This document shows positions 11,856 to 50,800 of a stretch of 53,000 nucleotides of DNA, piece after piece. The position numbers and the translations under genes were made by a program. How positions within the stretch are numbered: position 1 is the stretch's first letter; the number at the start of each line of letters is the position of its first letter. The notes beneath the pieces are model-generated. The model was given only the letters and a program-made list of their open reading frames with translations. It did no database searches and was not told the origin of the DNA. The DNA lies in contig NMRA01001122.1 in assembly GCA_002633005.1 (NCBI GenBank), forward strand, positions 1-53,000. The letters run 5' to 3'. This DNA comes from Phoronis australis. Taxonomy: Eukaryota > Animalia > Phoronida.

Positions 11856-14800
11856 TCCCTCCCTCTCCCACNNNNNNNNNNNNNNNNNNNNNNNNNNNNN
11901 NNNNNNNNNNNNNNNNNNNNNNNNNNNNNNNNNNNNNNNNNNNNNNNNNNNNNNNNNNNNNNNNNNNNNNNNNNNNNNNNNNNNNNNNNNNNNNNNNNNN
12001 NNNNNNNNNNNNNNNTCTCTCTCTCTCTCTCCCTCTCTCTCGGTAGGAACCCAACACCCCTACCAAAACAGAGCCAGCGTGCGGTACACACCCGTAACAT
12101 GCTCATTCAACACTGGTTTTTCGTGACTGACCAATGAGGATTTCGAAATCTTCAGCCGAAATGTGTCATTTTCAACACAGCGATAGATGACCCCGTATAC
12201 AGCCACTAAATCATTTTCACAGAAGAAAAATGCTTTACTCTAGAAATCGCTAAAAATTGCCAAGACGATCGTGTTTGTGGGAAACAAAAACGAGAAATCC
12301 AGCCTTGTGGACTCTGTCATAAGACTTACCGATTTTCGAATGGTTCCGCTGTAATATCTTGGCTTGGAAAAACAATTTTTCATTTCATTGACACTGATAG
12401 AGCCAAAGTAAGCAGTCAACGCTACATGCAGTTATTAGATGAAAATCTCCCGGATTTTATTCTGGATACAATGACGTATTTCAGCATGACGGGGCTCCGT
12501 CACACACGAGCAAGATAACCCAGGCTCATCTGGAGGATGGCACACCAATATTTATCAAAAAGAATGTTTGGCCCCGGTTCAATCCTGACTGCAATCCAAT
12601 GTACTACGTCATGTGGGACTCTCTGAAGGAGAATGTTTACTGGGGAATGAGAAACAAATTGATTGAGCACGAGTTAAATGGCAGGATAATTAATATGCCA
12701 TTGGAGGAAATCTCGATGGAAGAAATACGGAAAAGCATTTCTGATTGGAACAAAGGGCTCTGTTTAGGCCTGGAGGAAGATGTGGCCAAATTGAGCATAG
12801 ACTAAAATTAGCAAGCTTCTATTGATGTCTGGTGTTTTTATTTTGACAGTACACACATAACTGGACACAGACCTCTTTGATATTTTGCACATTTGTTGAT
12901 GATATCTCAACGTGTGTCTGTAAGAAACTTGAAAAAATCGGTTTATCGGTTGATAAGAAATTACTTGTCGAAAAGTGGCTTACTATATGGCGTGTTTGTA
13001 ATTTCGAATGTCGAATGACATTACACCCGGTTACAACTTACTGACGTGAAAGGGACCTAATGATCTAGTGTCCATCCATACCCAATCATTCTCCGATTTT
13101 CCAACTGTAGCCGCGCACCTACAAAATATTAGCACAGTAGTAAACAAAAGCCTGTAGCGTGAAAGTGCCCATTCGTGAGCATTGAATACTGCATACTGCA
13201 GTGATTTTTTAAACACAAAAACCACAAGACATTAATTTGTCGATGGACGCTATGTCGTTAATTGTGACCGTTTTAATCTTTTATGGGTACAAAAGGATAC
13301 AAGAAAACGCCACACAGGTATCGGACAGTTGGAAATCGCCCTGTTTCCTGGAGGCGAACTGCCCAGTCCCAAATGGAACGTTGGTCAAACTCGAAAAAAA
13401 TACAAGCAGCATTACAGGTCTGTCAGTTTCTTCTACGACGCTCTAAGCTGTCACAAAATGTTACATGCACGTCCATCAGAAACAGTGATATAATGGGACA
13501 GGCTACCACGTGTTAAATACTGATGACGTAATTATCAGTCAGTCTACTCAATTTATTTGATAGTGGTTACAAACATGAATTGCTTCTTGGCAAAAATTAC
13601 TTGTGCAATAATTTAGACTACTTAGAAACAACTTTTAATCAAGAGAAAGTTTTTTGTTTGTTAAATGTTAATATCCAGTCTCTACGTTACAAATTTGACA
13701 AATTATAAATTGCTTTAAACTTTTTTGAAAACATTTCTTTCAAGAAACGTGTCTGAATAGAAAGATAAACTTTTCTGTCGTGGTTATAATTTTAAAAAGA
13801 AATGAATCTGACTGTTCCAAACGTGAGGACGTCAGCGAAAGTTTAACATTATCGACTTCGAAACAGTTAGCAATAAAAGGATATACATGTATGTTCCTTA
13901 CGCTACATCGAACAAGAAACAAGTACGCAAACAAACAATTTGATAAATTCTTCCTCACTTAGTCTATAGATGTTTTACATTGCTCTTACACTCGTTTTTG
14001 CTAATGCCTTATAACTTTGCTATTCTAAATAATCAATAAAGCTGAAAAATTAGCTACCCAATATCAGTTATTTTAAAGTGATACACCCTACGAGTCAACA
14101 GATATAGTACTGAATACCTGGATATCGTACGAAACTGTTGACGCATTAATAAACTCACAGCTCACCACAGGTCGAAGAGGACTCCTCGAAAGAAACAAAT
14201 ATGACAAGGAGATCGACGTCATATGTTGTCGCACTCTGCATCTATTGTTGCCTGGGCGACAATATTTGTCAAACGCGACAGTGAATTTCACAACAAGGCC
14301 TGTAGATATTAATATGGTAAAGTGTTTGCCAGTTTTCAACTTCATTTTAATAACTAAGCTTTCATACTGTAGGTCCCAATAGTAAATGCTGGCAAATTTA
14401 TATTTCTAATTTTCAACCGGGCGACAGTATGAGTAGGGTGCGACATTATGTGCAGCGCACACCGAGCTATAATGTCGTCCCCAACTGTGTTGAGAGGTGG
14501 TATGCTTAGCTGTGTTTTTGCATATAGGAGGATCCACAGTCAGAGAAAGACACAGGAAACTAAATGAAAGCCCAAAACGAGATTGTACCAAATTGAACGA
14601 GGGAAGGTTTCGGCAAATGGTTGGTAAAGCTGATGACAGACTCGTTTGCGGATCGTGGAGTTTACAAACAGGAACGTTCAATGTGAAATGTAGATGAACT
14701 AAACTCTGCAAGGACTGCGTTTCGTGATCCCCATCTTAGTTACTATTTGAACTGAGGACTTACGTATGAACTGGATATTTTGGATTTCACTTTGAAAGAA

Positions 14801-17800
14801 CATTTACAAATTACCCACGTAACCGACTGCAGTTTCTAGTAAAGTGCCTCTGCTTTTCTAGTCACTCTCTGTTTTTTATCTGATTTCTAGCCTTGGTTGA
14901 AAATTTTCTTTACAATTGTACGTTTAAAGCCAACTGACATTGGGTTACCCACTTAGAATCAAATTTAATGTACAGAATTCTTATGGTGGGCTACTGTTCA
15001 TGGAAGTCAATTCTATGCATTTATAGATTTTTAAGTTTCTTTTTTCGTTGTCATAACAAAAGTAAACGTTAATTTTACGACTTTCACGACTGCACCGCAA
15101 TTGGAAATGCCATTGGAAATAGGGTCATACTTTCACAGAGGAAAATATTGCGTGGGTAACACTTTTACCCGGGGTCATAATGTTAATTACTTAAGAATGA
15201 TTCCATATAAAAACCATATGCAAATGAAAAATCACTATATACTCAAAAATTCATACAGAGCTAATACTTTGTGCATGTGTTGGGATGCTGGCCCAAAGTA
15301 CGCAGCGGCAATATTTGCACTCAATGACCTTTGGTTACCGAGATATGACCTATTTGGCTATAAAGGCATATTTCGCATTTTTTCATGTAAGTAAAAGTGC
15401 ATTTTTTGAATGGCAAAAAATCAGACTTGGAAAACTGGTGACAAAGTTTGACATTGATGGTCAAAAAGACTCATGTAAGGTTAGTAAGAAAATGAAATTT
15501 GCACCTCATAGGTACAATTAAATTTCCAGCGGGGGAGAAAACTCCGAAACCACTTTTCAGGCCAGTCAGTAGTGGCAAGATGTTGCTTAACCTTCCTGCT
15601 ATATCGGAATATATTTGAAGTTCAAATTCTCTGTGTAGACACTTCTAAGATTGTGTAAGTGAGTTATGTAAAAAACTGACTGCACAAAAATATGAAAGAG
15701 ACAAGATTTTTTATTCTTGCGTTGGGCTGAACAAAGACAGCAGAAACAGATGGAAGTTAACTCATGTTCCAAAAGACTCCGATATAGATTTGGGAGAGTG
15801 ATAAAAATGCGTAAAAATGGCCTTAATAATAAGTAGTGAAAATGATATTTTTGTAGGCTAAAACGGGAGGACATAAAAAAATCAATAAATCCACTCGAAC
15901 TAGTTTTTCTTGTTTGTTATTCTTTCTCCTTTCTGCTATATAGTTATTTTTTCAATAACGTGAAGCGATGATGTGCTGTTGCTGACAAAATGTCACCTAC
16001 TTCCAAGTACTATTATTTGCTATTTTTCAGAAAAAGTACAAAGTGGTCGTAAAAAGGGTTAAAAAAACTCGGAAACTCTTAAAAATTCAGGCTCAGGTTT
16101 CTTTTGACAAGGCCAGCTGATGTGCTAAGTTTCAAAAAAAATTGGTGATTTTGCATATATAGCCCACCATCTGGTTTTTATATGAAATTGCTCTTAATTT
16201 CACGAGAATTGGCTGACAAATGTTTTGTTCTTGAAAATGACTGTGTTGCGTGATTTTCTCAGACACCATCTCTTATATATGCAAATAATCAAGTAATTCA
16301 AACCGGGAAGCAAGTTAACGATTTTTGTAACACACATAATTACCCACAAACCTCAGTTTTACTCCATTTTCAGCACCCGTAAGTTTGACGTTATCTAAAA
16401 CGTGCAGTTCATAAAATCTTGAAGACAACGGCTTCCACGTCCTGACCTCCTCCTTTATTACTTTAACCGGTTTGCCAGGCAACACCATCTCAAGAGCCAG
16501 CTTCGATACTGGTGTTTCTGAAAACAGAATGTTAAATCGCGTATCAGCTAATACACAAGCTCTTAAACAGAATTGAAGGGACATCGAAGCGCTTTTCACA
16601 GATTTGTAAAATACATTATAATGAAAATAAATCAGCAAAACGTATGAACAATACTTGTTTGTTGTGTTAGCACTAACAAACTTAAATTCTCTCGACATAT
16701 TTAGTCGAATATTCGAGTGAATAAGTTCTTTCGAAAGGCTTGATTGCCGTGCATTTATATTTGACGTATTATTTCTGTAGATAAACTTGTTCAAGCGATC
16801 GTAATTTCGATGTATGCATGTTAATATTTGATTTTTAGTGGAGTGTGATATGTATGACTCTAAATTCTTTGCTCACAATGCACTGACTTCCAACCATGTT
16901 TAAAGATGAATTTGCATGCTCCTAACTAGGAGCAGAAACTAAACGTCTATGGTTTTTGAACATCATCCACGCTAGACAAAGTGCAGTTGTATTCATGGAC
17001 AACTTGTAAAATGTGAAAACAAAAAAATCTGCAAATAGGTGACCTTTGCACTAATGACGTATCTCGCGGGCTCACAAAGCCCGCATCATGCAGTTTTAGT
17101 CCCCAGCACCACGTATCGATACTTAATGGACACGGTTCAGTGATTTGCGGCGGATCATTTCCGCCACAAGACCCGTTCATAAAAACATTTTCAACCTAAT
17201 TCAACTTACTGTTGACGCTATATGTTGTGTTTTTAAATACTTTGGTCAATCAAACACAGAGATAAGGATTTAGCCTGCAACTGCTATAGCTTATTACACA
17301 TCTCATGCTAAGCTTCCACCGTCTGCTAAAGTAGGTTACCACTAGATACTGAGTTTAATGTCCAAGTCAAAACATCTGAAGATCGATGATTTACAAGAGA
17401 CAGAAAATGACAAATAAATTTTACTAAATTAAAAATGTCGTTTTATTGAAATTTTGCGTCTTACACTGCCATTTGCTGAACATGCGATTGTTGCGCGTGC
17501 TCATTTAAGTATTCTATTTTCACATTTGATGACGTCAGCCGCTGAGTGGTGCAGTGGTAAAGCCGACGGCCCGAAACTCTTGCGGACCGGTTCGAAATCG
17601 GTCTCAGTTTCCCGCCAACATGTTGTTCAACGACGTTAGATAACTAAATTGGTTATTAAAGTGGAGGTGGACAGGATTGTTCATCCATGAACAACCCTGC
17701 CAATGTGGCACATACTCAGCCACAACACCGCGTTCCTTACAATGTGACTTTTTATCACTCCGGCTGATCTGCTCACTCAGCTTGCCCGAAACCTGCTTTG

Positions 17801-20800
17801 CAGGCTCTTATAGCCCAGTTGGCTGTTTGGTGTAACCACTTGGTACTTTATATGGTATTTGCCCATTTGGAAGTTTGTACCCACTTGGTATTTGTTATTG
17901 AATTTGCCGTTTTGCTCGACCCAGTTGGTAGGCAATCCGATCAGCCAATACCCATTTGGTACTATGCTAACCTGTGCCACTTAGCATCCGATACTCAATT
18001 ACACTTTCGGTATCGGAAATGTTTGTGTTATCTCTTGTAATTAAGGAACCCATCTGGTTCGTTCTGTGAAATATTAATTTGCAGAGCTGTGACCCTGAAA
18101 TTCCCAATACATTTTAAAATATACATTATTCTTGTTGTTTTATTTGTCCCCAATAATGAGATTTATGGCACTCTGACATAAATCCTATTATTTGGGCAAA
18201 TAGCATATAACAGACCTTCATGCTGCATACCCAACTCCTAGTTAGTTCCTACCAAGTCCGATGGTAGCGCTGTTGTTCTTTCTCTCCAGCTTCATGTTGG
18301 CCCAGCCTCAAGCAACAGTACATTCACTCGTAAGTTTTCCTATTAGATAATTTTATACTTCTCCCACCTTCCCTACCCTGGGTTCCACGAAATCTCAAGG
18401 CCACCGATTCATACCTTTCCCACACTCTCACCCTTTTGTCGAACAAAATCTGCTGTTGGTTATTGTTGTTTTTGCAGTCCCTGCTGGTACCTTCTTCAGG
18501 CTCGGAGCGTGTTACCGTCAGGCAAGAAGCAACGTCATTGGCTAGCGACCCGACATGTTCTCCAGCATCCATCACTGCAGCTTGCTTCTCTCCACCCCGG
18601 TCACAGCTCTCGGCAAACACTGAGCCACAACACCACGTTCCTTACAATGTCTCTTTTCATCACTCCAGCTGGTCTGCTCCCTCAGCTTGTCCGGAACCCT
18701 GCTTTGCAGGTTGTTATAGCCCAGTTGTCTGTTTGGTGTAACCACTTGGTACTTTATATGATATTTGCCCATTTGGCAGTTTGTACCCACTTGGTACTTG
18801 TTATTGAATTTGCCTTTTTGCTCGACCCAGTTGGTAGGCAATCAGCCAATACCCATTTGGTATTATGCACCCATTTGGGACTATGCTAACCTGTGCCACT
18901 TAGGATCCGATACTCAATTACACTTTGGGTATCGGAAATGTGTGTGTTATCTCTTGTAATTAAGGAACCCATCTGGTTCGTTCTGTGAAATTTTAATCTG
19001 TAGAGCTGTGACACTGAAATTCCCAATACAATTTAAAATATACTTTATTCTTGTTGTTTTATTTGTCCCCAATAAATGGTTGTATCGGCCGTTCGAGGCT
19101 GATATTGTGGCCCACCGTGTTTCATACGGTATGAAACACGGTTAATGAACTTATAGAATCGCGATTATATTTATTCTAAGTAAAGTGAATTAAGAGCAAA
19201 ACAATCATTCTCTTTGTAAGAGAAGGGTATGAACACCAAACCTTTACCAAACTTTAGAAACCTCAGCTACCCGAAGCCACAGCTTGCAAAAAAGCGCCCA
19301 TTAAACTTTTTGCATAAAAATATATCTAGAGTGCTGCGAATCTCGTTAAACAAATAAGCAATCCAAATGTGTTCAATATAACATTTAAGAACAAAGGAAA
19401 ATAACATATTAGTTTTTTAGTTAATAATGATGAAAATTGTATTTCCTTGTTTTGCCCTTCCTGTACTGGCTTGGTATTATGGCTACTATTAACACTCGAT
19501 TGACATGTGCGCAGCTACTTACGAGACACTACAAAACCGAAAACTTGTACGTCACACAGCGTCAGAGTCTCCGATTCACCGGGAATCTGTATGTACAAAT
19601 AACGTCCATACACCGGATGAGGGCTACATCTAACTGTTACTCTGGCACCGGTGGCAACTGAACCCTTGTGAGTGTTGCACAGCTGATGTGAAGCGGATGG
19701 ACTAGAGGTGTTGGTCACCTTAACGTTAAAGTCGTGGAGACGTTCACCTGCAATAACATGACACTATGTTGGTGATTTCAGTGAAATGCTCTGATACAAC
19801 AGCGGTGAAAGAGATTTTACTCACAACGGGTTAGGGACTGCTGTCACAAACTAGCTCAATGCTCCCGTCTTTAAAAATAGATGCTGGGAGTTGGTACGTT
19901 GGTCGGGACGACAGTCCTCAGCTTGCTCTGCTTTTGGCTCCAATTTGTGTACTTTTAAATTTACATTAATGTAAGTCACTTTTTGAATTTTACATAATCT
20001 TTTCAAGTTATTTGTCCACGTGTACTTTACTTATCATAACACTTTTGGTAATTTAATTGTACATCTCTGTTTGTGTTTTAACTGTATGTTAATATTTTCG
20101 ACCACGCCCACTTAAAACATTGGCAGCAACAAGGATGACACTAATGACGGCGCGGACAAATACCTCGGAGACTACGACATCGCCGGCGACACTGTCAAAA
20201 AAACGACAATGCGTCAGCAGCAAAACTAAGAAAATCGCCGAAGACTACAAAGCCGCACCCAACACCGATAACAACAACGACGTCGATCGTGTCACAAGAC
20301 ACCAACCAGGTCAAAGACTATGATACCGCTAAAATGAATCGTTTTCATTGTCTTCGTCGTCATCATAACCATCACCATCCCCACCATCATCAGTTATTGA
20401 TAACGAAGTCGATAAATAAACAAAAACCTGAACACGGGCTGCCAATCGACAAGAATACGAGGGAGGAACAGTCAATAAAAATAGTTGTCCACGCAAATAA
20501 CTGAAGAACGGAGAGTTTAGTGAAAAATAGACAATTGTTTCGTGTAGTATTTGGCGATCTTCATCCACATATTAGTTTTATAAAGATCCGTCAGAGGACG
20601 TCTTCATAATTCAAGTCAGATTCAAATAAAATGCAACTGTTCTCGAAACTATGAAAATTCAAAAATTGCGCGCAAATTTAAAGTCAATAGAAAGAAAAAT
20701 ATGGTACGTTACATGCAAACGATAGAAGGGTCAAGAACTGTTGTTTTTCAATCCTGAGACAACTACCTCGTGCCATATTACGCACCAGGGTCGGACCTTT

Positions 20801-23800
20801 TAGTCAGATTCCAATTTGGCAAAAACGACTGTCGAGGGCATTTGGGGGGTAAAGATGCCCTGAAATATTTGAGCTCACTAAATTTCCAATGTAGCTTGCG
20901 GTATCATGTGACCTTTTTGCGTAACCTTAACCTCCAGTTACAAAAATGGTATCAGAATCGATTTTATACTACCTCAAAACCCATAGTTTGTTGTATCATA
21001 CTCATTTTAAAAGGCATTTATTGGGATTTGTCAATTACAATATGGCCGTTGGCGGCCATCCTGGATTTGAGGGTTATGCTGGCATAATCCAGCGAGGCAT
21101 ACAATTTTTTGGATTCTGCACTCCAAAATTAGTTCAAAATCAATCAAAATCAAATACCCTCGACACCATTTTCTTAGGCCTTTTTTGAAAATTGGAACCT
21201 CACTATAAGCCAACCTCAATGCTCGAGAACGGTAAGTCATACCAAGAAACGGATGCCACACGTACTCCATGACTTCAGAAATAAACTAGCCAAACCTGGA
21301 AAATCATGTTACAAGAATTGTTTATCAGTTTATTCGAACTTTTGTTGCAATGCAACATTTTTTGTAGAATTTATGTTGGAACATAGCGTGACGATATTGC
21401 GCCTAAGAACTAAATTTTTGTGTACGTAACCGACTTGCGTAATAAGATGTCGTGATTTCAACAATGTGGATGAATAAAATGAGTCGAGATTTTGCCAAAA
21501 TTTAGCAACACTTAAAATGAATTCAAGTTGAAAATAACTGGATATTAAGTTCCAGATTTGTCTGCCGAAGCATTGTCGAATTTTTACATTTGTCCAGTTT
21601 ACTTGGACACTACTATGGGACGAGAAATACACCAATAAAAGCGTCATCAGAAATTCCGGTGTACTCGAGCAGTAAGTCGTAGTAAGAAACAGATGAATCT
21701 CTCCAAATATTCCTCGCCTATATTTATCACCATTTCAGAAGATTCTATAAAGCGACCGTAGATTTAGAGCTCAGCAAAAGATTATTCGAAAAATGATCAC
21801 CACACCGCCATTTTGCATCATATTTCGCTACGAGAAACGTGCCTATGACAGACCAACAAAAGACCAGCGAGCAATAGGTCAATAAAAGAAGTCGACAAAT
21901 CAGCAAATCTCGTGTAACACGAGAACGGCCAGTCGGAGCGAAAAAACGGATTGCATATCCTGAGATACCACTTGGTAAGACTTATTTACATAGGAATTTC
22001 ATAAGTCCTCGTCAAAGGACCGCGTAGCTAGAGCTCCGCGAAAGGAAGGCAATCACAGCGCCATCTGTAGTCCAATTTTGCCAAAAATGTAGGCCTCAAA
22101 CTTTTAACAAGATTATGGTGGGTGTAAGTTTCACGTGGATCAGACGAAAATGTGATCTGCCACGTTCGCATTATATATCAACAAAAAACTGTGTCTTTAA
22201 ACCACAGATCAGCCAAGCTTATATAACTCTAGAACGGCAAGTCGGGTGGTATGTACGAATAGTGTAAGTAAAAACGTGGAGTTTCGACCATGTTCTAAGG
22301 CCGTCTCCTGGCTAAAAGACAAATTGTGTCCTTCACCGCTGGTGTCACAGGGAAGTCTGTAGACACCTTACGTCCCAGTACCAAATATCAGTTGAAACGC
22401 AGTCTGCAAACCTGTTTAGATATAGTTTTCGACTCTTTTATGAATCGCTTCCTTCTCCCCTTTCCTGAACAACTCGGTCACTATTCCTAATATTTTGACA
22501 TCTTCAAAATCACAATGGTGACCTATGTTGTCAAGGTGAGTCTATACAGGTGAGTCCTAAGTATTCTCATAACTGGGACGGCGGTACTGGTAAAGTCACC
22601 CCCGTAATTAGCCTTACAACCCTCCTCACTACAATCGATCCCGTCTGCACCTGAAGACTTTCGTTCCTGAGGAGTGCGGTCTTTACATGATCTAAGCGTA
22701 GGCGCATGATTTTCAACGGCTTATGGATCACCCTGATCCCAACTCCTGGAAACCTCGAACCTATATAATAAACTCTATGCATAGGGCATGCTGAATTGTG
22801 CTTACGTGCTTTTCCTGCAATGAGTGTTGCTCTGATTGGTTCCGGAAAGGTGTGAAGGAAGTGATGAATGAGACAATCGAGAAATCATCTGTAAATAGGC
22901 TTGATGGTCTGCGTTTCAACTTACCTCACATCTGGGACTGGGTCGTAGGGCCCTTTCCGTGTGTGAATAACACAGCATGTCATTCAGTCAGCACATGAAA
23001 CCAAAAGCTCTCACGAATGCGACATCAACGACAACCAAGACAACGCCGATGACGCTGGTATTGACAACAACAACGATGCCGTCAGCAATTTAATGATGCA
23101 TACCGCAGTGCATTTACAGAGACAAGGCTGCCGATCAACGAAGTCGCAGTCAGTGACAGCGACGCCGCCTACACCGACGATGACAATGGCTATAATTCCG
23201 CCATTGCCGACGACAGCAACGCTCCGCGAGCCGACAAAAGTTCCGAACCAGGTAACAACATTGATGGTGTTAACACTGAATCCAATGACGTACAATGACG
23301 AAAGCTACAGAGACGCCGGCACTGCCATGGAAACAACGTGAATAACACTGATGAGATGAGAGCGCATCTGGCGTCCATATAAATAAGCCATTGTCACTCC
23401 AGACGACCGTTCGGCAATCAAGGTGCCGATAACAACGACCTTGAAGCAAACGACACCAATGCCAAAGGCGGCGCCGTTGGAAACCATACCTCACCGGTGC
23501 ACCCCCCCCTTGAAAATTGGATGTCACACACGATGACGTGATAGTTCCAAAATTTTAAAACCATTACTGTTTTTAGCCACTTACACGGACTTTCCAGGGT
23601 TTTAAAATGCGATGATAAGTAAAATTACATGTAGCACAGACTGCGTACACCTGTACGGCACAGAATACCAGCTCATCTGTTTATCAGATAAATTGAGCTA
23701 CCTACAGCCAGCATGTCCCAGCTTCACCTGAGAGCTTGCAACTATTACAACAGCTTATTTCATAGCTCTTTAACATAATTACCGCAACAGTCCCCTCTGT

Positions 23801-26800
23801 TTAATACTGTTACATAGGAGATTGAGTGCGTAGCTGACAGATCCACTCTCCACCAGGGGTCCTTCTCACCAGCCGTATATGTACAGTAAGAGTAGTGTGT
23901 AGATAAATATCTATCCACAGCTTTTGAAGACACGTAGTATTCATATGTAGAGGACTGCTCAGTTGGCTTTCCAAAAGCAACATTCACTACTGTAACAGAA
24001 TCCAGACGCTTTGAACTGTCATGCGTGTCCATGACTCCTTGATGGAGCAGGAGTATACATGTAATATTGGAAGTCTGTTCAAGTGGCTTAGTAGAATAAC
24101 TCTCTACCCCTACTTCCTCGTTGTTCACCTCAAACAGCTCGAAACTCACCAAAGAGGAAAGAACAAATTTGTTCGAACAAACATAGCCTGATGGTGTCCT
24201 CCTGAAAGTAGTTCTATGGTCATTGGTCCCTCAAGACCAGTTTGTAGTTTACAAGAGCACTAGATAAGAGAGACATTTCTTCTCTTGCTAAAATTGGGTC
24301 TCATGCATCTAACGAATTCCGTTGTGTACTTGTCAATAATACAATATTGAAGGTTAGTGGTAACCCTTTACAAAACAACAAGACTACAAAACTACAAAAA
24401 GTTTAAGCAATACAAACAATAAAGTGTAATAAAATATGTAAATACAGATAAAAGTAAGACCGCACTATTTACAAATAGCGCAGACAATAATGAAAGATCT
24501 CTAGGGAGCGACATTTGGCAAAACTTATAGATAGACGACGGTGGTGATGACAGCTATGATGATGATAATGATGACGATGATGATGACGATGGTGATGATG
24601 ATGGCAAAAATTATTATAAGGACAGCCTTGTAAATTAATACTTGCAAAAGTTAATGAAACACGATGATGATGGGGACGATGGCGGTGGTGGTGGTAATGG
24701 CGGTGGTGGTGGTGATGATAATGACAACGATGATGATGGTGGTGTGGTGACGATGATGATGATAGTGGCGGTGGTGGTGATGATGGTGGTGGTGGTGATG
24801 ATGGTGGTGGTGGTGGTGGTGGTGATGATGACGGTGGTGGAGATGGTGGTGGTGGTGCTGATTATGATGACGATGATGATGATGGTGGTGGTGGTGATGA
24901 TGGTGATAAATGGAAACATACACATTTTGAAAACGAATGACAACGTTTTTATAATAATCTCTGGCATTATAATTAAATAACATATGTAGCCTGTGTGTAA
25001 ATGGTGNGGTGGTGGTGATGATGATGGTGGTGGTGGTGATGATGGGGGTGGTGGTTGTGGTGATTCGGGGGAGGCATGAGAATTCTGTATAGTAGCGAAA
25101 ATTATTGCGAATGATTTCAAAATATTCAAAATTTTCATAATAAATGCAAAATTATTCCATGAACCAAACATACCCTTCTCAATTATGGCTTGTATGGCTG
25201 GAATTCGCTTTACAACGCTCTTTGGCACCGTGTGCGCTCCGCCACTCGTGAGCGAGCCATCATAAAGTCCGGCGGTAAATAAGGTGCCCGGGCTCACGTG
25301 ACGACAGCACTTGTGTTCGTCGTCTTTGACACGAATCACAGTATTAGTAGTGGCACTATTGTAGTGATAACCTATGACGTCTCCTTTTTTCACTTCTACA
25401 ATAGTGGTGATGCCAATGTCTTGTTCACCTAGTAAAATTTTCTGTTTGTTACTAAAGTGATACCTCATCATTAAATAAACAAACAATAGCTGTAGTAAAA
25501 TTTCTTCGTGCTTCTCAACACATTTTTCCAGACAGTCACCCGTGTCCGCTGACTAACATTTAGCAACAATGACATTCTTAGAACAAACGTACCAAAAACC
25601 TTGTTTTGTGTACAGTGCCTGAGTTAAACAGTCAAAATTCCAAGCTCTGTAGTTTTAATATTTTTAATTAGTTGTCTAAATGCTGATTCATTTCAATACA
25701 ATTGTCGACAAATGCCTTACATCATATAATAATCTTTTTAAAATGTATTCATACTCAATCAAGAACAACGTCAACTCGGAAGTCACTGTCACGAAGGGCA
25801 GTCAGTAACAACTTTGGGCGTGATCGTGATGGTGTTAGCAAATATGATGGGGGTGATAACGCTTGTGATGATGGTCAGTATACATGTATGTCTATCGGAA
25901 ATTCAGCAGAAAATGCACAACATGACTTTAGAGTATGGGAATGAAACTTGCTCGCATGTAAAAATCGTATACACAAGCTGTAAGTGTTAAGAACTTATTG
26001 ATGTTTGCACTAAGTGACATTTGACCAATAAAATATGATTATATACGTTTTTTTTCAATTAAAGTCTTCCGGTACATTTGTAATATAAAATTTATACAAG
26101 GAGAGCGAGTCGTTCAAGAAATATCAAGGTCTGAAGAGGTCGGAAAATATGAACTAGAACTAGAATATTACTGTCAATGAAGGCAACAACTCCAGTGACG
26201 GATTTAGAGGGGGGCCAAGGGAGCCATCCCCCCTCTAAAACTCTCTCAGATTCCATTTGACAGTTTGGGGGTGCGAATGTCTGACGGGAAAAGTCCTGGC
26301 TAAAAATCTGCCCTGGTCCCCTAACTAAAAATCCTGGATCCGACCCTGAACTCTGTGCATGATCGTAATGACAACGGTGATAATACATGTATGTATGCTG
26401 CTGGTGATCATGTTTGTGGTGATCAGTGTATGTCTACTTTGTGACATTTGGAGTTTTTACATTAGAAGTGAATTATGTTAATCACACATAGTATTTGGAA
26501 TATTATGCGGAGTGCTGAAAACCGCAGACGTCTAGTTGTCAACGGGGCACAATGCAGGTTGAATGATAAAGTCGAATGTTCAGGAGAAAATGCACCTAAT
26601 GACCCGATATGTGCAACAAATGGGCTGGGATTTAAACTTGTTTGGATGCACAAATCGTTCACTTAAATTTGCATTGTCTAGTTCTCGTTATTTGTGTCAG
26701 ACATAATTCCGTGCAAACAAAACGTAAACAAACTCCACGACAAAGCTACACACTTGACGAAATTCGAATTCACCAAGTAAAACCAAAAAATGACAACAAG

Positions 26801-29800
26801 CAACGTACGAAGAAAAATTTCATTTCGCCAAGTATGAGACAAACTCGCTGGGCGGCAAAACGGCACACTTTGTTTTCACCAAGGATGGAAACCGTAGAAC
26901 AACAATAATCTGCGCTGGTACGAACAAAGTATTAAAACAAAAACCGTAGAACTCAAGTCCTCTACACTGGTACGCGTAGATTAACAAGCACTGTACACAG
27001 TACTTGATGACTACAAAGTATAATGCGATACGTTTTCCCAGGCACTCAAACATAAACTCTGGGGCTCTATCAAGTTTTCAGTGATTTTCGAATAAAATGA
27101 ACGTAGGAGTCAACCACTGTTGCAACTTTATATTTCGCATTCTTTGAAAAGCGAATTTTCTCAAATTCAAAGTATTGAAAAAACATTTTAATAGATCGAC
27201 GCAAGGCAAGCATTTCGGCAATATATGTGACATTTACCAAAGGATAACAGGAAATGTTTTATCTTGTGAAATTTACTTGATCCTCAAGCCCATTGTTAAA
27301 TAATAAATCGACGTATTGATTTATACAATAGAACAAAGTGGACAAATTCCTCACATGTACACCACGAGGGCAAAGGAACAATTGTCTCTGGAATCTTCCC
27401 CTGCGAAAAATACACATTTGGGAAATGGTACCCTGATATTCAAAAGAAAGACAGTACTTAATATAACTCTGTGTCACACAAATTTGTAACCTATTCAATT
27501 TTGAATCATCTATAAATTTCACAGTGTTGGGCTGTACTACACCATTCACCAGTAAAAATACATTCCAAACTGCCTCTCATCTCATTTCGAATTTAATTTC
27601 CACCCTACAATTGGTTAACAAAATGCTAGACCAGAAGCAAGTGCTATTACAAAAGAGAGCACGTGATCCTCCTGCAATATATTAATACAAGAGGATCACG
27701 TGGCATCTTACGAATATTTGTGTGATTTATATTTTTCTTTGCTTTGCAATACAAATCACGTGTTTACAAGATATCACCATGCATAAGTTAAGACGCACTT
27801 ATGCCAGCGCTCTACTCTTTGTACTCAAACTCGAACTGGCAATTGTTTTTCCAGTATTCGAAGGAGTGTGCGAGTATCTTTGGTCATCCCTTTTAGTGAA
27901 CAATATTACAACTATCGTTCGTTGCTATAATCTATGGTGAACTCACGATCAGTGCATATTATTCTTTACTCGCGCACATTGTGGTTTACGCATACGAGTT
28001 TCTGGGCCAAATTTGCACTTGACAACTGTGATTGACTTAGTGCAAAATAATTCTGATATATGTCTGACATAACTTGATTTATGTGAGACATAATTCCGAT
28101 TTCTACCAGGCATAAATCAAGTCCATATTTTTTTTCAATGAACAATAATGACAATTAAAAATGTAATTGGTCAAAAAGAGGAGCTCGTGATGAAGATAAA
28201 ATGATAGAGTAAAGATTAAGCCTGTGAGTAAAGAACGGTATAATACGCAAAAGATTAAGTTGAGTCCCTGTTTGGGTCTGCTTCGTGGCATCGGGACAGG
28301 AGAGAAGCATCAGTGAAACGCAAATTATCACAGCCCTGGACGTCTTATAGATAAGAGGTTCAAGTAAACTTAACCTACCATAATTTGGTGTCAGGAGTGG
28401 TATTTGCAGCAACGCCTACTATAGTGTTCGAGCTTCAGCAAATAAATGCGTTGGCCCAGCAGACCAGTTACTTGAATATGAGCCCACATCCACATGGGCC
28501 TATATATGTAGGTTTACTGCCCGGCCACGAATCAAATGGCACCGGCTCACCGGGCCAGCGTGTATTTCGAATGCTGACGCCTACCCTCCCACAAGATTGC
28601 ATCTCCATAGTAGTAAAACACGAAGTGAAAACCTAGGGTACCTTGATTTGCTACAGTCAGCTGCGTTTTGTGAATCAATGTCCATTGATCTGGTTCTTTT
28701 GACAGCCGCCAGATGTCAGCCCACACCGTACCAGCACGTTTGGCATTAAACTTCCAACCAGTCAAAACAGCATCCGATGTTATGCGGAGGTCGGGAAATA
28801 TTGATAAATTAGGACCTTCGGTCGACATCTCATCAACGTCAGTAGGGCCACCGACATGACCTAAAACATCATGTTTAAAGAATATTTGAATAATTAAGTC
28901 TTAGTACCTACGTAACAATGCGCTAAAACCCATTAGTGTTCCGCCGAGCTATGTCGCGTGTTCCAGGGGCCGAGATGTAATCTTTCTACTCTAAATCGAA
29001 TTTGAAATTATTGTGGCATTTCTGTTCCGTTTTGTGCAAACTCAAGATAAGTACTTGTTCAGGGGTGGATCCAGGATTTTGAATTGGGGGGTCAGGGCAC
29101 AGGAATAACCAGAATTTCGCTTCATGCGTGCGCCCAGACACAAATGTAGGGATGTAGGGGATCTTGAATTTTTGGGTTTATTACTAAAAAAAAAACAAAC
29201 GGGGTTTGTTCAAGGACTACGCATTGTGCATTCGCCCCCGACCCCTCTGGGTGCTAGTCAGCAATTTGCACCCCGAAATGCCAAATGGAATCTGGGAGAA
29301 TTTAAAGGGGGTCATGGCCCTTGCCCCCAGTAAATCCGTCACAGCTGTTATTCTGCGCTCGAGTAAATTGTGGTTTATGTAAATGAGTTTCTAGTTATTT
29401 TGGCATTCGAGGACCCCTAGATTTGAGCTTTTAGCCTCAATGATATGGTCATTAAGTGCAAACTAGGACTCAATTTCAGTTCGCACAAAATTGGAACAGA
29501 AAATACCACAAATTAATCTCAGGTCAGTAAAAATTAGAGCTTTATTCACGTGCCAAATCACATATACATGTACCTTGTATATGTATTACTGGTCTATGAA
29601 ATCTTACGGTTGTCACGGGTTCGCACTTCAGAAATAAATAATCAGACCAGCGACTGCAGTTCAATCATATATCGTACTTATCCCAACGGTACAGTCACAC
29701 TTCACAAACTCCGATTCAGGACTCGCTCAAACCACGAGGTTTCCAGAGAACCCGCGTATCAATAATTAGCCAACAAATACCTTCAGGTAGGTGTCTCAAT

Positions 29801-32800
29801 GGACATCAGAATATAAAGTGAATCGTGCTAACGGGCGAGAGTCCATCCCGCCACACGGTTTTATATTCCTTGCTTATTCTTTTACGGTACATTTCAATTA
29901 ATTGGTTGACTTTGAATTGCAAATACGTTAACGTCTTCCTTTTCGTAACAAGCATGCTATTACATCTTAGTCATATGGTTTTCTAACCGTGCGGTTTCCC
30001 TTGTATCAATAGTCTCTGTAAATACATTTAATTTACGTTTTTAAATAAACTTGCGTTGTATTTCATTTCATTGTACATGTACTTGTTTCTGTTGTCATCT
30101 ATATTGTTCTTCTTATTTGTTAATATCTATTTAACATGCGCGCACCCAGGGGGGGGGGCTCGGGGGGCTCGAAAAAAGGTCCGCCTCAGAGAAACAAAAA
30201 GTGAGACAAAAGTCCACTAAACAAGCACAAACGCGTGCAATTCACGGTGGTGTCCCGTTTTTTTTATTTTTTTTCCTAGTTCGCCCCTTTTTTCTTACCA
30301 AAAGGTCCACATGGTCAGGAACTCGAGCCCCCACGTTTTGAATGCTGGGCGCGCGCATGCTTATTTATTGTTACTCGGTGGTCAGCTAGTAGCGGCCCGT
30401 GCCTTTCCTGGCCATCCAGTCACATCACAATGCAGGTTTTTATATGATTTAAAAAATAAAAGTTTCTCTCTATCTTTCTTGATTTTATTCAAAAGTATAT
30501 ATGCGATTTAATTCGGCGATTTAATAGGGGTTTTCATTGGGATGCACCTTCACACAGGCACCCACGTAGACCTAAATGGCTAGAGAACTGGATAGGTTTG
30601 AAGTCTTCTCTCGCCTTCCAGAAATAGATTGACTTGCATGCTTATTTACTTTTTATCCAGTTTAAGTGTTAGCTAAAATTATCATTCAAACGGCAATGTT
30701 TAGGTGTTTTGTCTAGTAAGGGTCTGCCCTTCTCACTTTTCTCACACAACTTCAAAAGATGTTGGAAAAGCCCAGAACTTGGCAGTTTCAATTGCTAACA
30801 TGTGCAGTTTTAACGTATCTTTGTTTTTCAAAATACTACGGGATACTTGGGCATCGCGTATGAACTCTGAAATTAAACATATACCCTGCACAGTGAGCTT
30901 GCGTGTAAGGTCACGAACTGGTAAGTCGACAGCAGGCATAAATGCAGTGTATGACTTCGCATTTATAAGACATTTCGTGGTTTAAATGTCCAGCACACGT
31001 ACTATTTGCTCTCAACTGTTTCTTGTCCCACTTCACCAATCAAAATATGTGACAATATAATATTTCATTCTAAAAGGTCACTCTTATTGATTTAGCGCGA
31101 TTAACTTAAGACTTCGATTGGTCCAAGGATTTACATCAATGGACAACAAACCTGCGCTTTCTGTAAAATGACGATACAAAATTCATCGGAAATAGTATTT
31201 ACCCACGGCCGGCTGCCTAATTTCCGTCTCGCAAGTAGTTCTGACTTCCGTTTGACAATGTTGGGAGCCATTAGATGGTAAAACGTTCTACAGATACAGA
31301 TGGAATTGGTTGGAAAAAAGTTTTCGGTGATAACAAAACTAAACGTCCTTGGTTTGTACCTCCTAAGCAAGGTACAATCCATAGAAGGAATTAACACAGG
31401 AACAAACAGCGCAACCTCAGCCACGCGAGATCGAATTTGGCATTCGCTCCTAGAGTTCACAAAGTGCCAGTTCTTCACAAATCTGCAATCTGAGCAAGGG
31501 ACACGATAAGCGTCGAATTTATAACGTTAATGGACCCAAAATGAAAAGATGTTTTGAACATGGTGTAAAGCAAAATGTTCAGGATATAAACACCCGTTCA
31601 TTGCATCGTACTTACCCGTAAAGAGACTGTACACCTCCACCTCACACAAAACGAGATGAAGATCCTTTTGATGTATAATAAGATATCTTCCGTATACAGT
31701 TTTATTGCAAAAGAGGTCCTCTGTTACACCAGCACCAATAATTCCAGGGTAGTGATAACATAGGGGGTCACTAGTTGACCATTTCCCGTTGCTGGATACA
31801 CGGACAAAGATGTCGAAGGTCGATTTATCTGGAAGACATTTACAACATTAGTCGCACTGTGCTCCATTGAAATTGGAACCCCGGTGTAAAACACATATCC
31901 TGGAGCCGCCCCTTCAAAACAGCTAACCAACCCGAAAAAACATGAACCGCAACCTTTAAAACAGGAACCCAGAGGAAGGGACATTATACTCGGCGACCAA
32001 AACACCACTCCTGCACTTTCTGCCAAACATTGCTTGTCTCTAGAAAGTAGTACTTAGTACCTTTAAACAGTACACACCATGGATTTTTGCACATTTTGAA
32101 TTACCGGTGGCCACAGACTAAGTGTATGACGTAAAATTTAGCTAAACCCGTGTTTATTTTGTGTAATTAGCTCGAAATTTTGATTTTTCTTTCAATTTTG
32201 CCAATTTTCCATTTCCCGCCATGTGACGTCATGGATTGAACACAAGAGATCAGTGACTAGCATTGAACCATGGCGCAGAGCAGGGAATTTGAAAGCGACT
32301 ACGATTATGAGCAAGAATTGAACGAATACTATGAAGAAACGTACGGGAATAGTGGCCAGGATGAGGAAATGGAAATTTTTAATATTACAATTTCACAGAA
32401 CATTTATTAGATGATAACTTGAATATTAGCTAAGAAAGCTGAATGCAATGTAAAATTATTAAGCTAAAAATAAAACTATTAACAAAAAGTAACTGAATAT
32501 TACTCTACATTGCGCAAGTGTATTTTTACGAAAGTTGCGTCGTGTGGTTGAAAGTTTTCGACACGTCGAGTTTTTTAGCGGTTCACGTGAGAAAACAAAT
32601 CCTACGCTCTTCTCAGGTTTATGACATTGGAAAAAACCTCTTGGGATTTTTGTCAAAGTCCCTCGGCAAGACTCGGGATTTTGAAAAAATTTCTTCTAAG
32701 AGGTTTTACCCATATAATAAATCTGAGATTCGAGTAGGATACTCTAATATAAGAGAGTTTTAAACAACATTATGAACCATTGGAGTTCTACCGTTATTCT

Positions 32801-35800: not shown

Positions 35801-38800
35801 GCGCCTGTGGTTGTGTCTGCTAAACTCTCTGATGGATCTTTGTTAAATCTGGTAAGTGCATTGGTGACAACGAATAATGACAATCGTACGGATCCCACTC
35901 CCGCAGTGACCCCTAGGCCAGGGTCAATTTGTTGTTAGCTGTTTGAATAACAAACGGTTAGAAAAAATCAATGGCGTAGGGAATGAATAAATGATGTAGA
36001 TCTTGCTGCGAGTCGGACGCGGAAGCAGGATAAACCTAAAACATTGCAGCTGATCTTTCGGTGCAATGAAGAGACCAATACCTGAGCTAGTGTGTGCTAA
36101 ACGTGGCATATTATAAACGCGCCCTGTCGGCCTGTCAAAATGCAAGTTTCAATAAGACTATGAAAGGCAACTGACCACCGTAACTATTTTCAAATTTGAA
36201 AAAAAAATAACTGCACGCGAAGTTACTAAGATGAATAAAGTCTTCAGGTCCTCACCCAAAGGCCAAACTAAGGGTCTGCAGATCACCATGGTCACAGCAT
36301 AGGTTTTACGGAATGTTTTCCTAGCTTGTCACAATAACAGTGGTCAAAGGGATTGGGGGAACCAAACGGCCGAAGTAATGTTTTCTCACAAGGATTAAGA
36401 GCCTGGAACATGTTTTACGTACGGTAATCTTTGTGTCGTCTGTTGGTGACACTAACACCGTATACAGCATGAACGGTCTCCAAGTCCACTTTCCACCATG
36501 GATTCGGCTTGCTTGTGTGAATACAGCTGTTACCAACGAGGTAACTAGTATGTTTGTTTCCATCGACAGCACGTGACGACGCACCTCCGTCCCGAATGCT
36601 TGCCTGGGAGGTGGCCTTACCGAGCGCGATATTCTCTGTAAAGCAATGGCACAAATGCTGACCGTTCTCAGTATAGCTCTACTAATAAAAACAATAGTTT
36701 TACTGTTAATTGTCTCAGATCCGGCACGTGAATCCACACACTTTCCTTAATATCTCAGGTCGTTATTATGGAAGAGCAACGTCTACATTTGTATGTTTCA
36801 TCTCATATAGCTGCTTACCCATCTTGCCATAAACTTCCACCTCACATAGACTTAGAGCCTCCGGCCCCACCTTCTGTATATACAAGTATCTCCCACCAAC
36901 AGGCTTTACACAAGGGACAACCACTGTTGCACCAGGACCAACAGTTTCGCCATAATGACGGCACAAGGTGTCAGTTGAAGAAATCTTTGACTTGCTGGAT
37001 ACTTTGATATCAAAATTTGATAATCTTTCAGCTGAAACAGTACAGTTCACATGAATATAGATATTATAAAGCATGGAAATCGTTCGATAGCCCGACAAAG
37101 GGGTATTTGCCAATTTTTCTAGCTTTCGGTGAAGCTGTCAAGGTTTTTGTTTGTCTCGCGTCCCACCACACCATCAAACTGTCCCGGTTTTTGATATACG
37201 ATAACATTGATGTATTATCATATAGTAGTCTCCACGTAACTAAGCCTATTTTTCTGGCTGACTAAATACCCTACTGGAGCATGTTCATCATCCTTGGGTT
37301 TTGAAATAGTCCCAGATGTCTCCATTTATACACGGATTTCCCAAATTTTCAACTCCAGTTGTCCGGCCCAGTTTTTTGCACTCAACTGTTGGCAACAACG
37401 CTTAAGTGAACGGATTTGTGAACGAAGTCTACAAATATGAAGGGTCGTGAGTCCAAGCATGTCCGGAGGACCATAAGCTCGAAGAATAAGTCAGTCCGAC
37501 AACAATTAGGGATTATGGTTAGTCCGGACTAAGTTCAAATTTTAACAAATAATATGCAGACTTATTAGTCCAGAATCTAACAACGCAAAGCTGTTAACAA
37601 CTGAGCAAAAAGTTAGAAGCCTGCGAAATTTTGAACTTTTCAACCATTGCGACAAAAACTAGGAACAAATTGCCGAACATTGTTGAAAGATTTTTAACAG
37701 ACGCTAGATTCAATTCGTTGGTTTCGGAGAGATACGGTAGGGGGCAGCAGCCGTGGCTGCACACGAACTTGAACAAAATCAATCCCTCGATAAATCTGTA
37801 TGGGGACTGAAAAACATGGTTTAGTATATCTACCAAAGGCACTGTTATACGACGAGAAGTTTTTATTTTAGAAACCTAAATGCGGAACCTTACTTAATGA
37901 ATTTACATTTATCAGGGACCGTAGAGTTGTGTTAACTTCATGGGCAGCGAAGATAAGAAAAGACATCTTCAAGGCCGAGTGGAAATTCCCGATGGCGCTG
38001 AAGCCACCGATGCCTGCTCCACCTCTAACGTCTTCTGACATTATTGGCATAAAATGTTCAAGTCAAAACGAACTTTTGGACTTATGAACCTTCAGACTCG
38101 TGAACTTTTGACAATCGGTTCGTTACATTATGAGTATGCAGACATAAGGTTGAAGAAGCATGCTAGCCACGGCCGCTTTATCAAAGCTGGCCTCGGAATT
38201 TTTGGTAGTCTGTTAAGTTAAATACATATATTGGCCTCTTTATCATAACATCAACCGAATTTTGATAATAATTGTTCAAACAAGTGATATCTGTTGTTCA
38301 TTTTTGGTGGGATAACCTACGCACGCTTTTGTTGAAATTTCAGTTGGTCAATCACTTGCGTTTTAGGCCAAAACAGAAGCTCGGATTTTAAGATGAGCAC
38401 GTACGTAAATAAAGAATGTTTATCCGACGTTTCAGTTTATTACTTTAAACCATTTTCAAGGCAACAGTCCACATACTCAAACAGGCGACACAAGTGGAAA
38501 ACAAACTGTGAAGGTAATTGTCCAACATGCATTGTGAGATGAGACTAGAAATCAAAACAGTTTGAGCTCAAATGAACCAATGTTCCTACGGCGTGGTTCA
38601 ACCGTATACATGTATGCATATAATCTTCTTTATGAGGAGCCCCTGGGTGGCATAATCCTTGTCTCAGATCTAAACACCAGAGCAATCTGTAGTGTAATCA
38701 GTTGTCAATGAGTGGTTGAGAACATCACTATGTGTGTCTAACAGTGTTCTTTGACTCAGATGCTAAGAATCCTGTAGGTCATTCCGATGTAAAACTGCTC

Positions 38801-47800: not shown

Positions 47801-50800
47801 ACTAAGAGCTCGTGACTTGCATCGTAGGTAGTAAGATATTGCCTATAGTTTTGCGTCACGAGGGACTCTGACCACCGAGAGGAATCGTAAGTAGAAGATA
47901 CTGAATGTAGAGGTGCGTCACCAGAGACTGACCGGCAAGAAAAGTCGTGAGTAGAAGATACTGCCTGCAAGTGTTGTATCAGCAGAAACTGTGACCAGCA
48001 AGTACACTGTCGCAGCACAGTGTGTGTAGTTCGAAGATTCACCAACAGGACTGTCATCCAACAAGTGAAGAGTCCTAAAGCTTGGATAACAGATGAGACA
48101 TTTGATTAATTTGATTGATTAATTGAAGTATTCTTTACAGAGGGCGCTAGAGTGTTACTCTTCTTTTTAGTTGATTACTTAGTTGTGAACGTGTGATAAC
48201 ATCGAGCTTCTTTGTTAACTGCCAAGCACAGTCTTTTGTCTGGTATGACAACACTCAGATTTTAATAATAGTTGTGACAACAGGCAGGCCAATTATCAAC
48301 TAGTCTTATTACAGACCAGTTGTGAACACAGTCAAACCCAGAGGAAATTGGTACATTCGGAAAGAATAGCTTGTCCTAACTTCTGTTGTAGTTGGCCGAT
48401 TTTGGCAATTCAAAACTAAACATGATCACCATTTGACGAGGATTTCAGAAATGCCATTGGCTTATGTTCAAGTGTGTTATAACTTAACTTTTATTCTTAG
48501 CAGCACAGCCCAGTCACGCTAGATATGATCTTATTGGAGATTAGAGGAATTATCGAACAAAAGAGAGCTGGCTCTCCAACCATAAAAGCCAGAATGGCGT
48601 TAATCAGTCGTGTAAGATAATGGCTACAGGGGTGTTCTTCCAAACTTGTTGTTGGACTATAGAATCGAACAAGTTGGGAGCAACGGTAAAGCGCCGTAAT
48701 CAACACGTTTCACTTATTTAATTAGTGGTTTTCATATAATAAATTAATTACTGGGTTTAATCATTCCCTCTCCATCTACGCATTATCTCAAAAGCATAGC
48801 TACCTTTTGAACAAACCCACAATCAATCTTTGACAATAAAAATACACGGGAAAGCAGTGATCGAAAAAAATCCACGCTCCCACCGATCTTAGAGGTGAAA
48901 ACAAATGTGATGATATGAAAAAGTTACGTACAAAATTCCAGTCTGTTTGTTATACTGACAGCGTATACGGCATACATTCCCTCCAGGTCAACTTGCCACC
49001 AATGGGGTTTCGTATTGTCATCTGTTTGCGTACAGCTGTTCCCTGACCAGGCTGTGTCTTTGTTTCCATCGACAGCACGTGCCGAACCACTCCCATCAGA
49101 GGTGGTTGACTGGTAAGTGGGCTTGCCCAGTGCGATATTCTCTGTAATAAATATACATTGACCAGCAAAAACTTGCATAACTGGTTCTGGTTTGCGCCAT
49201 TCGCAAATGACAATGTACTCCTCACTGCTAAAAAACCCAATGCGCATTGCCTCTTGCGAACCTTTTTATCGAATGCTGCAAAAATATACCTAAGAAGTAA
49301 GTCTGACTGAGTTAGGCACTTTTATGCTTTTGGATCATTTATAAAATCTCTATTGTAAACTGTACTAGTCGTTATAATAAACAAATATCATTTATCATAT
49401 ACATTCTTTCAAAAGGACACTTTCTTCCAATTAGAAGTCATGTCTGCTTTATGTTTGGTCAAAACACGATCAACATTAATGCTGCAAACGAACAAAAACT
49501 TCATGGCAAAAGAGTTGCTAACTTGATGAAAACGTATCTTAGAAAGTCTGATCACGTTCAATGTGAATATTTATCGGCGCACAAACGTACCAGGCTCTGT
49601 GACATCTTCGTTGAAAAACGTGGCTGTACAATGAACCACGTTGCCTTCAAGGTACTTGAAAAGTTTAGTGGTTGTCTTGAACCTGGTTATTGTGGGTTTT
49701 CCTGAAATAGCGGTACGCGAACTTTACCCTAAACCTTTCACTCATTAAGTGCTGTTCAAAGAAGCAATATACTCTCACTCACAATTAATATGATTATGCC
49801 TACAGGTAGACCTTTTGAGTCACCTCAGATTCAGTCACACTATGACGTGGCTTCATCTGAAAGGTCTAACTTGAGTTCTGTCCATACACTCCGATTAGTC
49901 GCATGCCACCACGTAAACGACAAATCGGAGCATGCAACCACGTGCTTTGAACTAAAAAGTCATGTACCTATTCTTTGAGGTAAAGTACGTTGTATACTGC
50001 TTTTGTAAGAAACCATAGGGTACAGTCGCACCACTTTAAATAGACACTTCGCGCAATACTAAAGACCATCTCTGATTCTGCAGTACTTACACTCAATGCA
50101 GTGCATTCGCGGGACACCTGCTGTACACAGTTGCCGTTCTGAGCACTACTGGACATAAGTATTAGTAAGTTTGCCACGTCGCTCTGAGATGAGTAAAGTT
50201 TTACTGCTCAATAATGTGTTGCAATACAGATATAAATGAACTAAAAAGGTCAACGAGGTATGGTATGAAGCGACCCTCACTTGTCCCACTAGGCCCAGAA
50301 GTGTACTAGTGACCCTACGTGTCGAAATCAAAAGACAATCCCCTCAAATGAAGAGCCGATGCTTTAGGGATCTGATGCAATTCCGTATACATTCTGATTT
50401 TGAGCCCTATAAGCACACATTTAGGTCCGTGTGCCTAAATATGAAATAATTTGCCTTAAGGTTAACTGTGTCCAAGTAGTCCATGTACAGCTGCACTTAA
50501 GCTTCCCTTACTAGGTTCCTTGCGGTGTCTTAAAGTGGGCGTTTTCACGTGTTTTCGTCAATAGTTAAGACATTTTATTTAATAAATTTTTCCTCGCATG
50601 ATACTTTTAAGACTTGCCCATTGTTTTTTCTTAAGACTGCATTTTGCCCTGTTCAGCTCGCTGAAAAACGAACATGAAATACATTGTTGTTCCTTTACTC
50701 TCATGAAATAGGTCTCGTAATATTTGTTACCCCGACTAGTAGGATTACGCTTCAGAGTTTATTGGGATTGAACAAGTTTAAAACTCCAACTCGAGAATGG

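Follow-up and report, generated by a model that had tools for sequence, protein, structure and literature searches.

Can a small immunoglobulin (Ig)-like domain be divided between distant exons and hold a large lectin array between its parts? This question is raised by a single minus-strand gene in a stretch of 53,000 nucleotides from Phoronis australis (assembly GCA_002633005.1, contig NMRA01001122.1, positions 1 to 53,000; the window hereafter). Its modules are ordered CCP-A-FTL1-FTL2-X-FTL3-B-C-CCP-CCP-CCP, in which the CCP modules are of the sushi type, FTL denotes an F-type lectin domain, X is a module of about 158 residues, and A, B and C are three further exons. We find that a single transcript very likely contains A, the cassette of four domains, B and C in this order, and from their sequence we put the probability that A and B/C form one split Ig-like sandwich around the cassette at roughly 0.65.

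The gene extends past both ends of the window, which holds the middle of what is likely an extracellular animal mosaic protein. The surrounding DNA is of animal type, with 40% GC, GT-AG introns and transposon remnants. Joined by script, the 15 exons of our model give an open frame across 947 codons, in which FTL1, FTL2, X and FTL3 take two exons each (a and b below). All eight cassette exons are of phase 1-1 and lie within a phase-1 gap between A and B. A, B and C lie on the minus strand where a first-pass annotation of this DNA had placed them, are bounded by AG and GT, and have the phases given there (1-1, 1-2 and 2-1). Joined directly, the three exons are open over 117 residues (about 120 had been claimed) with exactly two cysteines, at positions 24 and 93, and the computed insert of 1755 nucleotides, or 585 residues, agrees with the earlier estimate. 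Also as claimed, the interval 13042–49701 contains one N only (25007); the other N runs (6881–6963 and 11872–12015) lie outside it.

Transcript and exon order

RNA evidence came from three raw-read runs (X1, X2 and X3) and a small contig set (X4), chosen by the same species label; about 18–19% of each raw run was sampled, and read counts are given as X1/X2/X3. The stretches covered by the read alignment leave out the junctions FTL2b>Xa, Xa>Xb, CCP1>CCP2 and CCP2>CCP3. Reads derive from the minus strand and support 10 of the 14 modelled junctions: seven were read as joints, and in the other three a loose end corresponds to the end of the following exon. Between A and C, eight of ten junctions are supported, in the order host piece, insert, host piece. 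The five junctions by which the first-pass annotation tied the host pieces to their neighbours were all seen, each with several hundred reads in both X1 and X2 and with 0–2 in X3 where given: CCP0 to A (51862>49701, 504/454/2), A to FTL1 (49591>49141, 642/441/1), FTL3 to B (19523>16517, 360/262/0), B to C (16352>13118, 393/316/0) and C to CCP1 (13042>10654, as loose ends, 432/382 in X1/X2). Junctions inside the cassette are given in Table 1. In these samples the splice from A leads directly into FTL1 and that from FTL3 directly into B, which bears out the claim that neither half has a partner exon beside it, and the introns neighbouring A and B contain no exon with strong splice sites and Ig features.

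Exon depth on both sides of the cassette is about 380–840 in X1, 330–670 in X2 and 0–8 in X3, with an X1/X2 ratio of 1.13–1.38, the two alignments having used different similarity filters. As depth and the pattern over the three runs are alike across the gap between FTL2b and Xb, a single transcript is very likely. In the contig set X4, no depth was found over the bins with A, FTL1b, FTL2a and CCP0. Expression in X1 and X2 exceeds that in X3, a run of the same study, by about 100-fold or more, which suggests a tissue- or stage-specific gene; strong expression in two runs and near silence in the third mean that its tissue and its ligand can be pursued.

Is the cassette an optional part of the protein? 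The first-pass annotation had supposed that it could be wholly or partly spliced out, for which these samples give no support: loose reads at the B acceptor (38 in X1, agreement 1), the FTL3a acceptor (agreement 0.99) and the FTL2a donor (agreement 1) show the modelled neighbour only. The skip junction 49591>16517 was not seen, all 38 of the 38 loose reads at 16517 in X1 being of FTL3 type, beside 360 joined reads. Nor does a skip occur among the six largest loose ends per run at the A donor, a weak limit given that the smallest of these hold 127 and 139 reads. In the runs examined the cassette belongs to the chain as a constant part, and splicing varies frequently at one place only, the return hinge, by three residues. 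This variation stems from a second B acceptor, missed in the first-pass annotation, that lies 9 bases into the exon at 16508, stays in frame and removes 3 residues. It accounts for 260 of the 620 FTL3>B junction reads in X1 and 186 of the 448 in X2, about 42% in both. About half of the reads using it carry a variant letter adjoining the acceptor, and its use could reflect alternative splicing or allele differences.

Weighing a putative split Ig-like host

The case for one split domain starts from the cysteines. Outside the modules with paired cysteines, the 947-residue chain has just two single ones, Cys86 and Cys740: each CCP contains four cysteines, FTL1, FTL2 and FTL3 contain 4, 4 and 6, the two of X are adjacent, and the remaining two fall one in A and one in C. 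Once A, B and C are joined, the two lie 69 residues apart, within motifs typical of Ig strands B and F; the spacing between the paired cysteines of Ig domains ranges from 55 to 75 residues. A strand-B pattern matches the chain once (position 84), as does an E–F pattern (position 733). In shuffled sequences the former matched in 1.3%, the latter in 0.08% and both in 1 in 100,000, rates that flatter the case because the patterns were written after the sequence had been seen. From this we infer an Ig-like fold, a Cys86–Cys740 bond and a position of the cassette in the B–C loop.

A number of observations weigh against such a host. The first strand-B pattern that we tried failed to match exon A. 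A strand-C Trp and a strand-F Tyr corner are described as hallmarks of Ig domains (PMC12051499). In the 117-residue join the canonical strand-C Trp is absent, as had been pointed out in the first-pass annotation (Trp occurs at 64, 104 and 106, and none shortly after Cys24), and there is no Tyr corner, a Leu standing two residues ahead of the second Cys. None of the single pieces A, B and C had an Ig match in Pfam or NCBIfam, PDB sequence searches with the pieces gave no useful match, and no homologue with A, B and C as a contiguous host was found in the collections searched. A profile of 68 bacterial Ig_3 domains, a poor reference in that only 1 of the 68 has two cysteines, scored the join at -1.4 bits, a score reached by 595 of 1000 shuffles, and a beta-periodicity test separated neither the join nor known FTL domains from shuffles. 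The proportions are also unusual: domain insertion is reported for 20% of multidomain proteins, and in 77% of events the insert is smaller than its host (medians of 115 residues for inserts and 199 for hosts; PMC13114784), and an insert five times its host (585 versus 117 residues) runs counter to this rule. Moreover, two cassette junctions (FTL2b>Xa and Xa>Xb) are modelled from sequence, and the full fucose motif of F-type lectins, H-X24-R-X-D-X4-[RK] (PMC5712786), occurs in none of the three FTL domains. A single-sequence fold of exon B alone had a mean pLDDT of 52, too poor for use. Because the Trp and the Tyr corner, an Ig_3 signal and a homologue are missing and the fold is conjectural, we do not place A+B+C among the classical members of the Ig superfamily, plausible though an Ig-like fold is.

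What else could these exons encode? The modules could be arranged like beads on a string, with A as a linker or small appendage, B+C as a small domain in its own right, either truncated or of an unknown type, and each single Cys paired with the adjacent cysteines of X or with a second chain. Family, structure and homologue searches gave nothing that ties A to B/C, the strand-C Trp is missing, and the two cysteines of X may be available as partners. We nonetheless consider this arrangement unlikely, since A stops right after a strand-B-like motif and B+C supplies the sequel, with an Ig-like Cys spacing of 69, and pieces of 36 and 81 residues with one Cys each would be hard to fold alone. It is also conceivable, if improbable, that A, B and C are indeed one split domain but form another beta-sandwich outside the Ig superfamily, or that the break falls in a loop other than B–C. 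The missing Trp and Tyr corner and the lack of an Ig profile match would suit this, and other types of sandwich are known as split hosts in animals, such as MG6 and CUB in TEP1 (PMC3464232); the order and spacing of the two Cys motifs, however, follow those of Ig strands B and F.

Finally, two transcripts might meet within the cassette, one ending after FTL2 or Xa and another starting at X, in which case no chain would hold both A and B/C. The FTL2b>Xa and Xa>Xb junctions lie outside the read-covered stretches and no long read spans the gene, yet FTL2b contains no stop and ends in a strong donor, both X exons are open in phase 1-1, reads join Xb to FTL3, and both halves share their depth and their pattern over X1, X2 and X3, which makes such a meeting of transcripts highly improbable. 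One transcript with a split Ig-like host is the reading that we carry forward.

Cassette, CCP modules and other elements of the window

Table 1. Exons and modules of the gene model in the window (reads as X1/X2/X3, or as X1/X2 where two counts are given)
Feature	Positions	Strand	Phase	Evidence and remarks
CCP module 0 (CCP0, sushi)	51862..52047	-	1-1	Pfam Sushi E 8.4e-07; junction to A in reads
Exon A	49591..49701	-	1-1	N-terminal piece of putative Ig-like host (putative strands A, B, assigned from a motif; Cys86); spliced on both sides
FTL1 first exon (FTL1a)	48932..49141	-	1-1	Pfam F5_F8_type_C E 1.9e-09; 48932>37031, 371/330/0
FTL1 second exon (FTL1b)	36819..37031	-	1-1	weak Pfam PF22633 E 0.086; 36819>36635 to FTL2, 472/402/0
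FTL2 first exon (FTL2a)	36423..36635	-	1-1	Pfam PF22633 E 1.4e-08; 5' end in junction reads
FTL2 second exon (FTL2b)	31616..31828	-	1-1	5' end in loose ends at FTL2a donor, 593/496
Module X first exon (Xa)	28642..28860	-	1-1	open; boundaries placed from sequence; donors 28732 and 28585 also possible
Module X second exon (Xb)	25174..25428	-	1-1	two adjacent Cys; 3' end in loose ends at FTL3a acceptor, 309/282; acceptor placed from sequence, 25395 also possible
FTL3 first exon (FTL3a)	23783..23989	-	1-1	Pfam PF22633 E 7.2e-09; 23783>19747, 321+91/263+64
FTL3 second exon (FTL3b)	19523..19747	-	1-1	donor 19523, joined to 16517 and 16508
Exon B	16352..16517	-	1-2	middle piece of putative Ig-like host (strands C to E); second acceptor 16508; spliced on both sides
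Exon C	13042..13118	-	2-1	last piece of putative Ig-like host (strands F, G; Cys740); joined from B in reads
CCP module 1 (CCP1)	10472..10654	-		Pfam Sushi E 0.00096, under cut-off; 5' end in reads; four-CCP profile matches PDB complement receptors
CCP module 2 (CCP2)	5519..5698	-		Pfam Sushi E 0.0035, under cut-off; four aligned Cys and Trp
CCP module 3 (CCP3)	413..598	-		no Pfam match; 36% identity to CCP0, same Cys/Trp pattern

The identities of the CCP and FTL modules are shown by Pfam and PDB profile matches. PF22633 is above cut-off for all three FTL first exons, whose joint profile matches MsaFBP32 (E 3.6e-33) and eel agglutinin (E 3.8e-16) in the PDB. The CCP modules span about 60 residues with four Cys and a Trp each, and Pfam is above cut-off for CCP0 only. 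The three FTL domains depart from the fucose motif in different ways: in FTL1 a Gln replaces the His and the R-X-D part is altered, FTL2 keeps the His and lacks the acidic and the final basic residues, and FTL3 keeps R-X-D-X4-R with a Tyr in place of the His. Since no FTL has the whole motif, the ligand of the cassette is probably another glycan or a protein surface. The cation motif h-h-D-G-x is present in FTL1 and FTL2 and altered in FTL3. Over about 140 residues, FTL1 and FTL2 share 73, FTL1 and FTL3 share 60, and FTL2 and FTL3 share 49. FTL3 (19523–19747 and 23783–23989) is polymorphic in the reads, with 11 variants listed, of which 5 change a residue and one adds a Cys in about 13% of reads; for exon B one variant is listed.

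Module X is probably beta-rich. No family, PDB or atlas match was found for it, including Pfam searches of either exon for DUF4082 or any other family. A possible likeness to DUF4082 was considered, but a profile of 7 bacterial copies of that family gave no significant match to X (1.3 bits, reached by 59 of 1000 shuffles). A single-sequence fold of Xa was too poor (pLDDT 59.5), and a fold search gave no match at E 0.001.

Homologue searches extended these results. Restricted to proteins of at most 2000 residues, candidate searches gave no relative: 0 of 7 for exon B within longer proteins, 0 of 25 for Xa and 0 of 470 for the CCP alignment. A protein atlas search gave nothing usable for exon B and a best value of 0.78 for Xb; a metagenome scan with exon B found none in 599 stretches. 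None of 81 loci from FTL scans (27 genome, 54 metagenome) had relatives of A, B+C or X (best E 0.044). A full HMMER scan with exon B gave three matches, all to bacterial-type repeat proteins with summed weak matches, which we rejected.

Upstream of CCP0, from position 52048, reads have loose ends (581/441 reads, agreement about 0.8) whose sequence does not occur in the window; they carry what we take to be the end of a kringle-like domain, which suggests that the whole protein is a larger mosaic. Their mixed agreement may reflect alleles or alternative upstream exons.

Other elements in the window are probable repeats or transposon remnants. The long FTL1 intron contains a repeated element (42100–45200) with a CXC-like Cys cluster at 44185–44460 (Pfam TCR E 0.00087) and a plus-strand GT-AG joint at 42811–43677 (14/19/14 reads). 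A minor joint, with 12 and 3 reads, leads from the FTL1a donor 48932 to an acceptor within the intron, at 48080, and probably marks a cryptic exon in repeated DNA. Two similar plus-strand stretches at 17768–18889, with plus-strand read depths of 10–30 in X1 and X2 and many loose ends, are likely a repeated element transcribed elsewhere. A fragment of a non-LTR (long terminal repeat) retroelement reverse transcriptase lies on the minus strand at 2045–2371 (Pfam RVT_1 E 4.1e-05, under cut-off), and an open frame on the plus strand at 12443–12805, which had no Pfam match, is presumably a Tc1/mariner-like transposase remnant.

A proposed branch point and its known counterparts

How might a split Ig-like host carry such a cassette? 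We propose that the 36-residue piece A and the 81-residue piece B+C close into one disulfide-type Ig-like sandwich, which would hold the cassette sideways off the CCP stalk as a branch point. The termini of FTL domains lie side by side (PMC5712786), and close termini mark inserted domains (PMC13114784). As the FTL ends are adjacent, tandem copies can cluster at one point and return to it, and X is assumed to return to its starting point in the same way. Gathered round the loop, the FTL domains may then form a multivalent head that would bind glycans or cell surfaces. The design could have arisen from a phase-1 intron in a loop of the host, which took up lectin and X exons of phase 1-1, by shuffling or duplication, with the frame intact; the phases and the FTL similarities fit an insertion by exon shuffling followed by duplication. 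An ancestral form that lacks the insert was not found in the collections searched.

For the wider proposal the odds seem to us about even: that a disulfide-bonded Ig-superfamily domain of an animal has been turned into a branch point, with a four-domain lectin head five times the size of its host exon-shuffled into a phase-1 intron within the domain, at its B–C loop, and that such split Ig domains, invisible to family searches, may be a hidden recurring design in invertebrate mosaics. If the fold is true, an intron inside a domain can serve as a landing site for exon shuffling that yields a branched instead of a linear protein, and as many as 585 residues can be accommodated between the closing parts of a small Ig-type domain. 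The gene would then offer a natural test of the separation that two Ig pieces tolerate while folding together, and unannotated "linkers" that flank lectin blocks in other invertebrate proteins may be split domains as well.

The first-pass annotation held that no described protein has this architecture. The exact domain string was indeed not found in the literature searched, a search thin on subscription journals that brought up no animal protein in which FTL domains are nested in an Ig domain; the principle of a split Ig-like host with a lectin or other binding domain, however, has been described. Split Ig-like domains with binding domains are known from bacterial RTX adhesins such as Vibrio cholerae FrhA and MpIBP, where a sugar-binding domain lies between the parts of a sequence-discontinuous Ig-like domain that is proposed to project it from the stalk, and where the split is likewise hard to see without a structure model (PMC10865825). 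These adhesins are bacterial and intron-free, and the one sugar-binding domain of FrhA splits off a single N-terminal strand (PMC10865825), whereas the phoronid gene is of an animal and would place four domains of 585 residues after two predicted strands, between two cysteines, at a phase-1 intron and on a CCP stalk.

Animal proteins offer further parallels. Similar to the proposed host, the hybrid domain of integrin beta is a split Ig-like domain that holds a binding domain, betaA (vWA), but it carries one vWA domain and serves conformational signalling in a heterodimer (PMC2171847); here there are three FTL domains and X, and the window shows no sign of a partner chain. In TEP1 and the complement C3 family, animal immune proteins, the beta-sandwiches of MG6 and CUB-TED are also split by inserted segments or nested domains, although the hosts are macroglobulin and CUB domains and the inserts described are linker or thioester ones, with no lectin cassette (PMC3464232). 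Closest in composition are Drosophila Furrowed and CG9095, sea urchin SpCRL and Xenopus PXN-FBPL, large mosaic proteins in which FTLs occur with CCP repeats and tandem FTLs have a degenerate fucose motif; the account of these mosaics treats them as domain combinations and, as far as it was available to us, mentions no FTL block nested in another domain and names neither an Ig-like piece nor a module X (PMC5712786). A split Ig-like host that carries binding domains is therefore a known design that is likely unusual at this size, and what is likely new in the phoronid gene is the combination of an animal setting, a probable Ig host of the disulfide type and an insert five times as large as that host.

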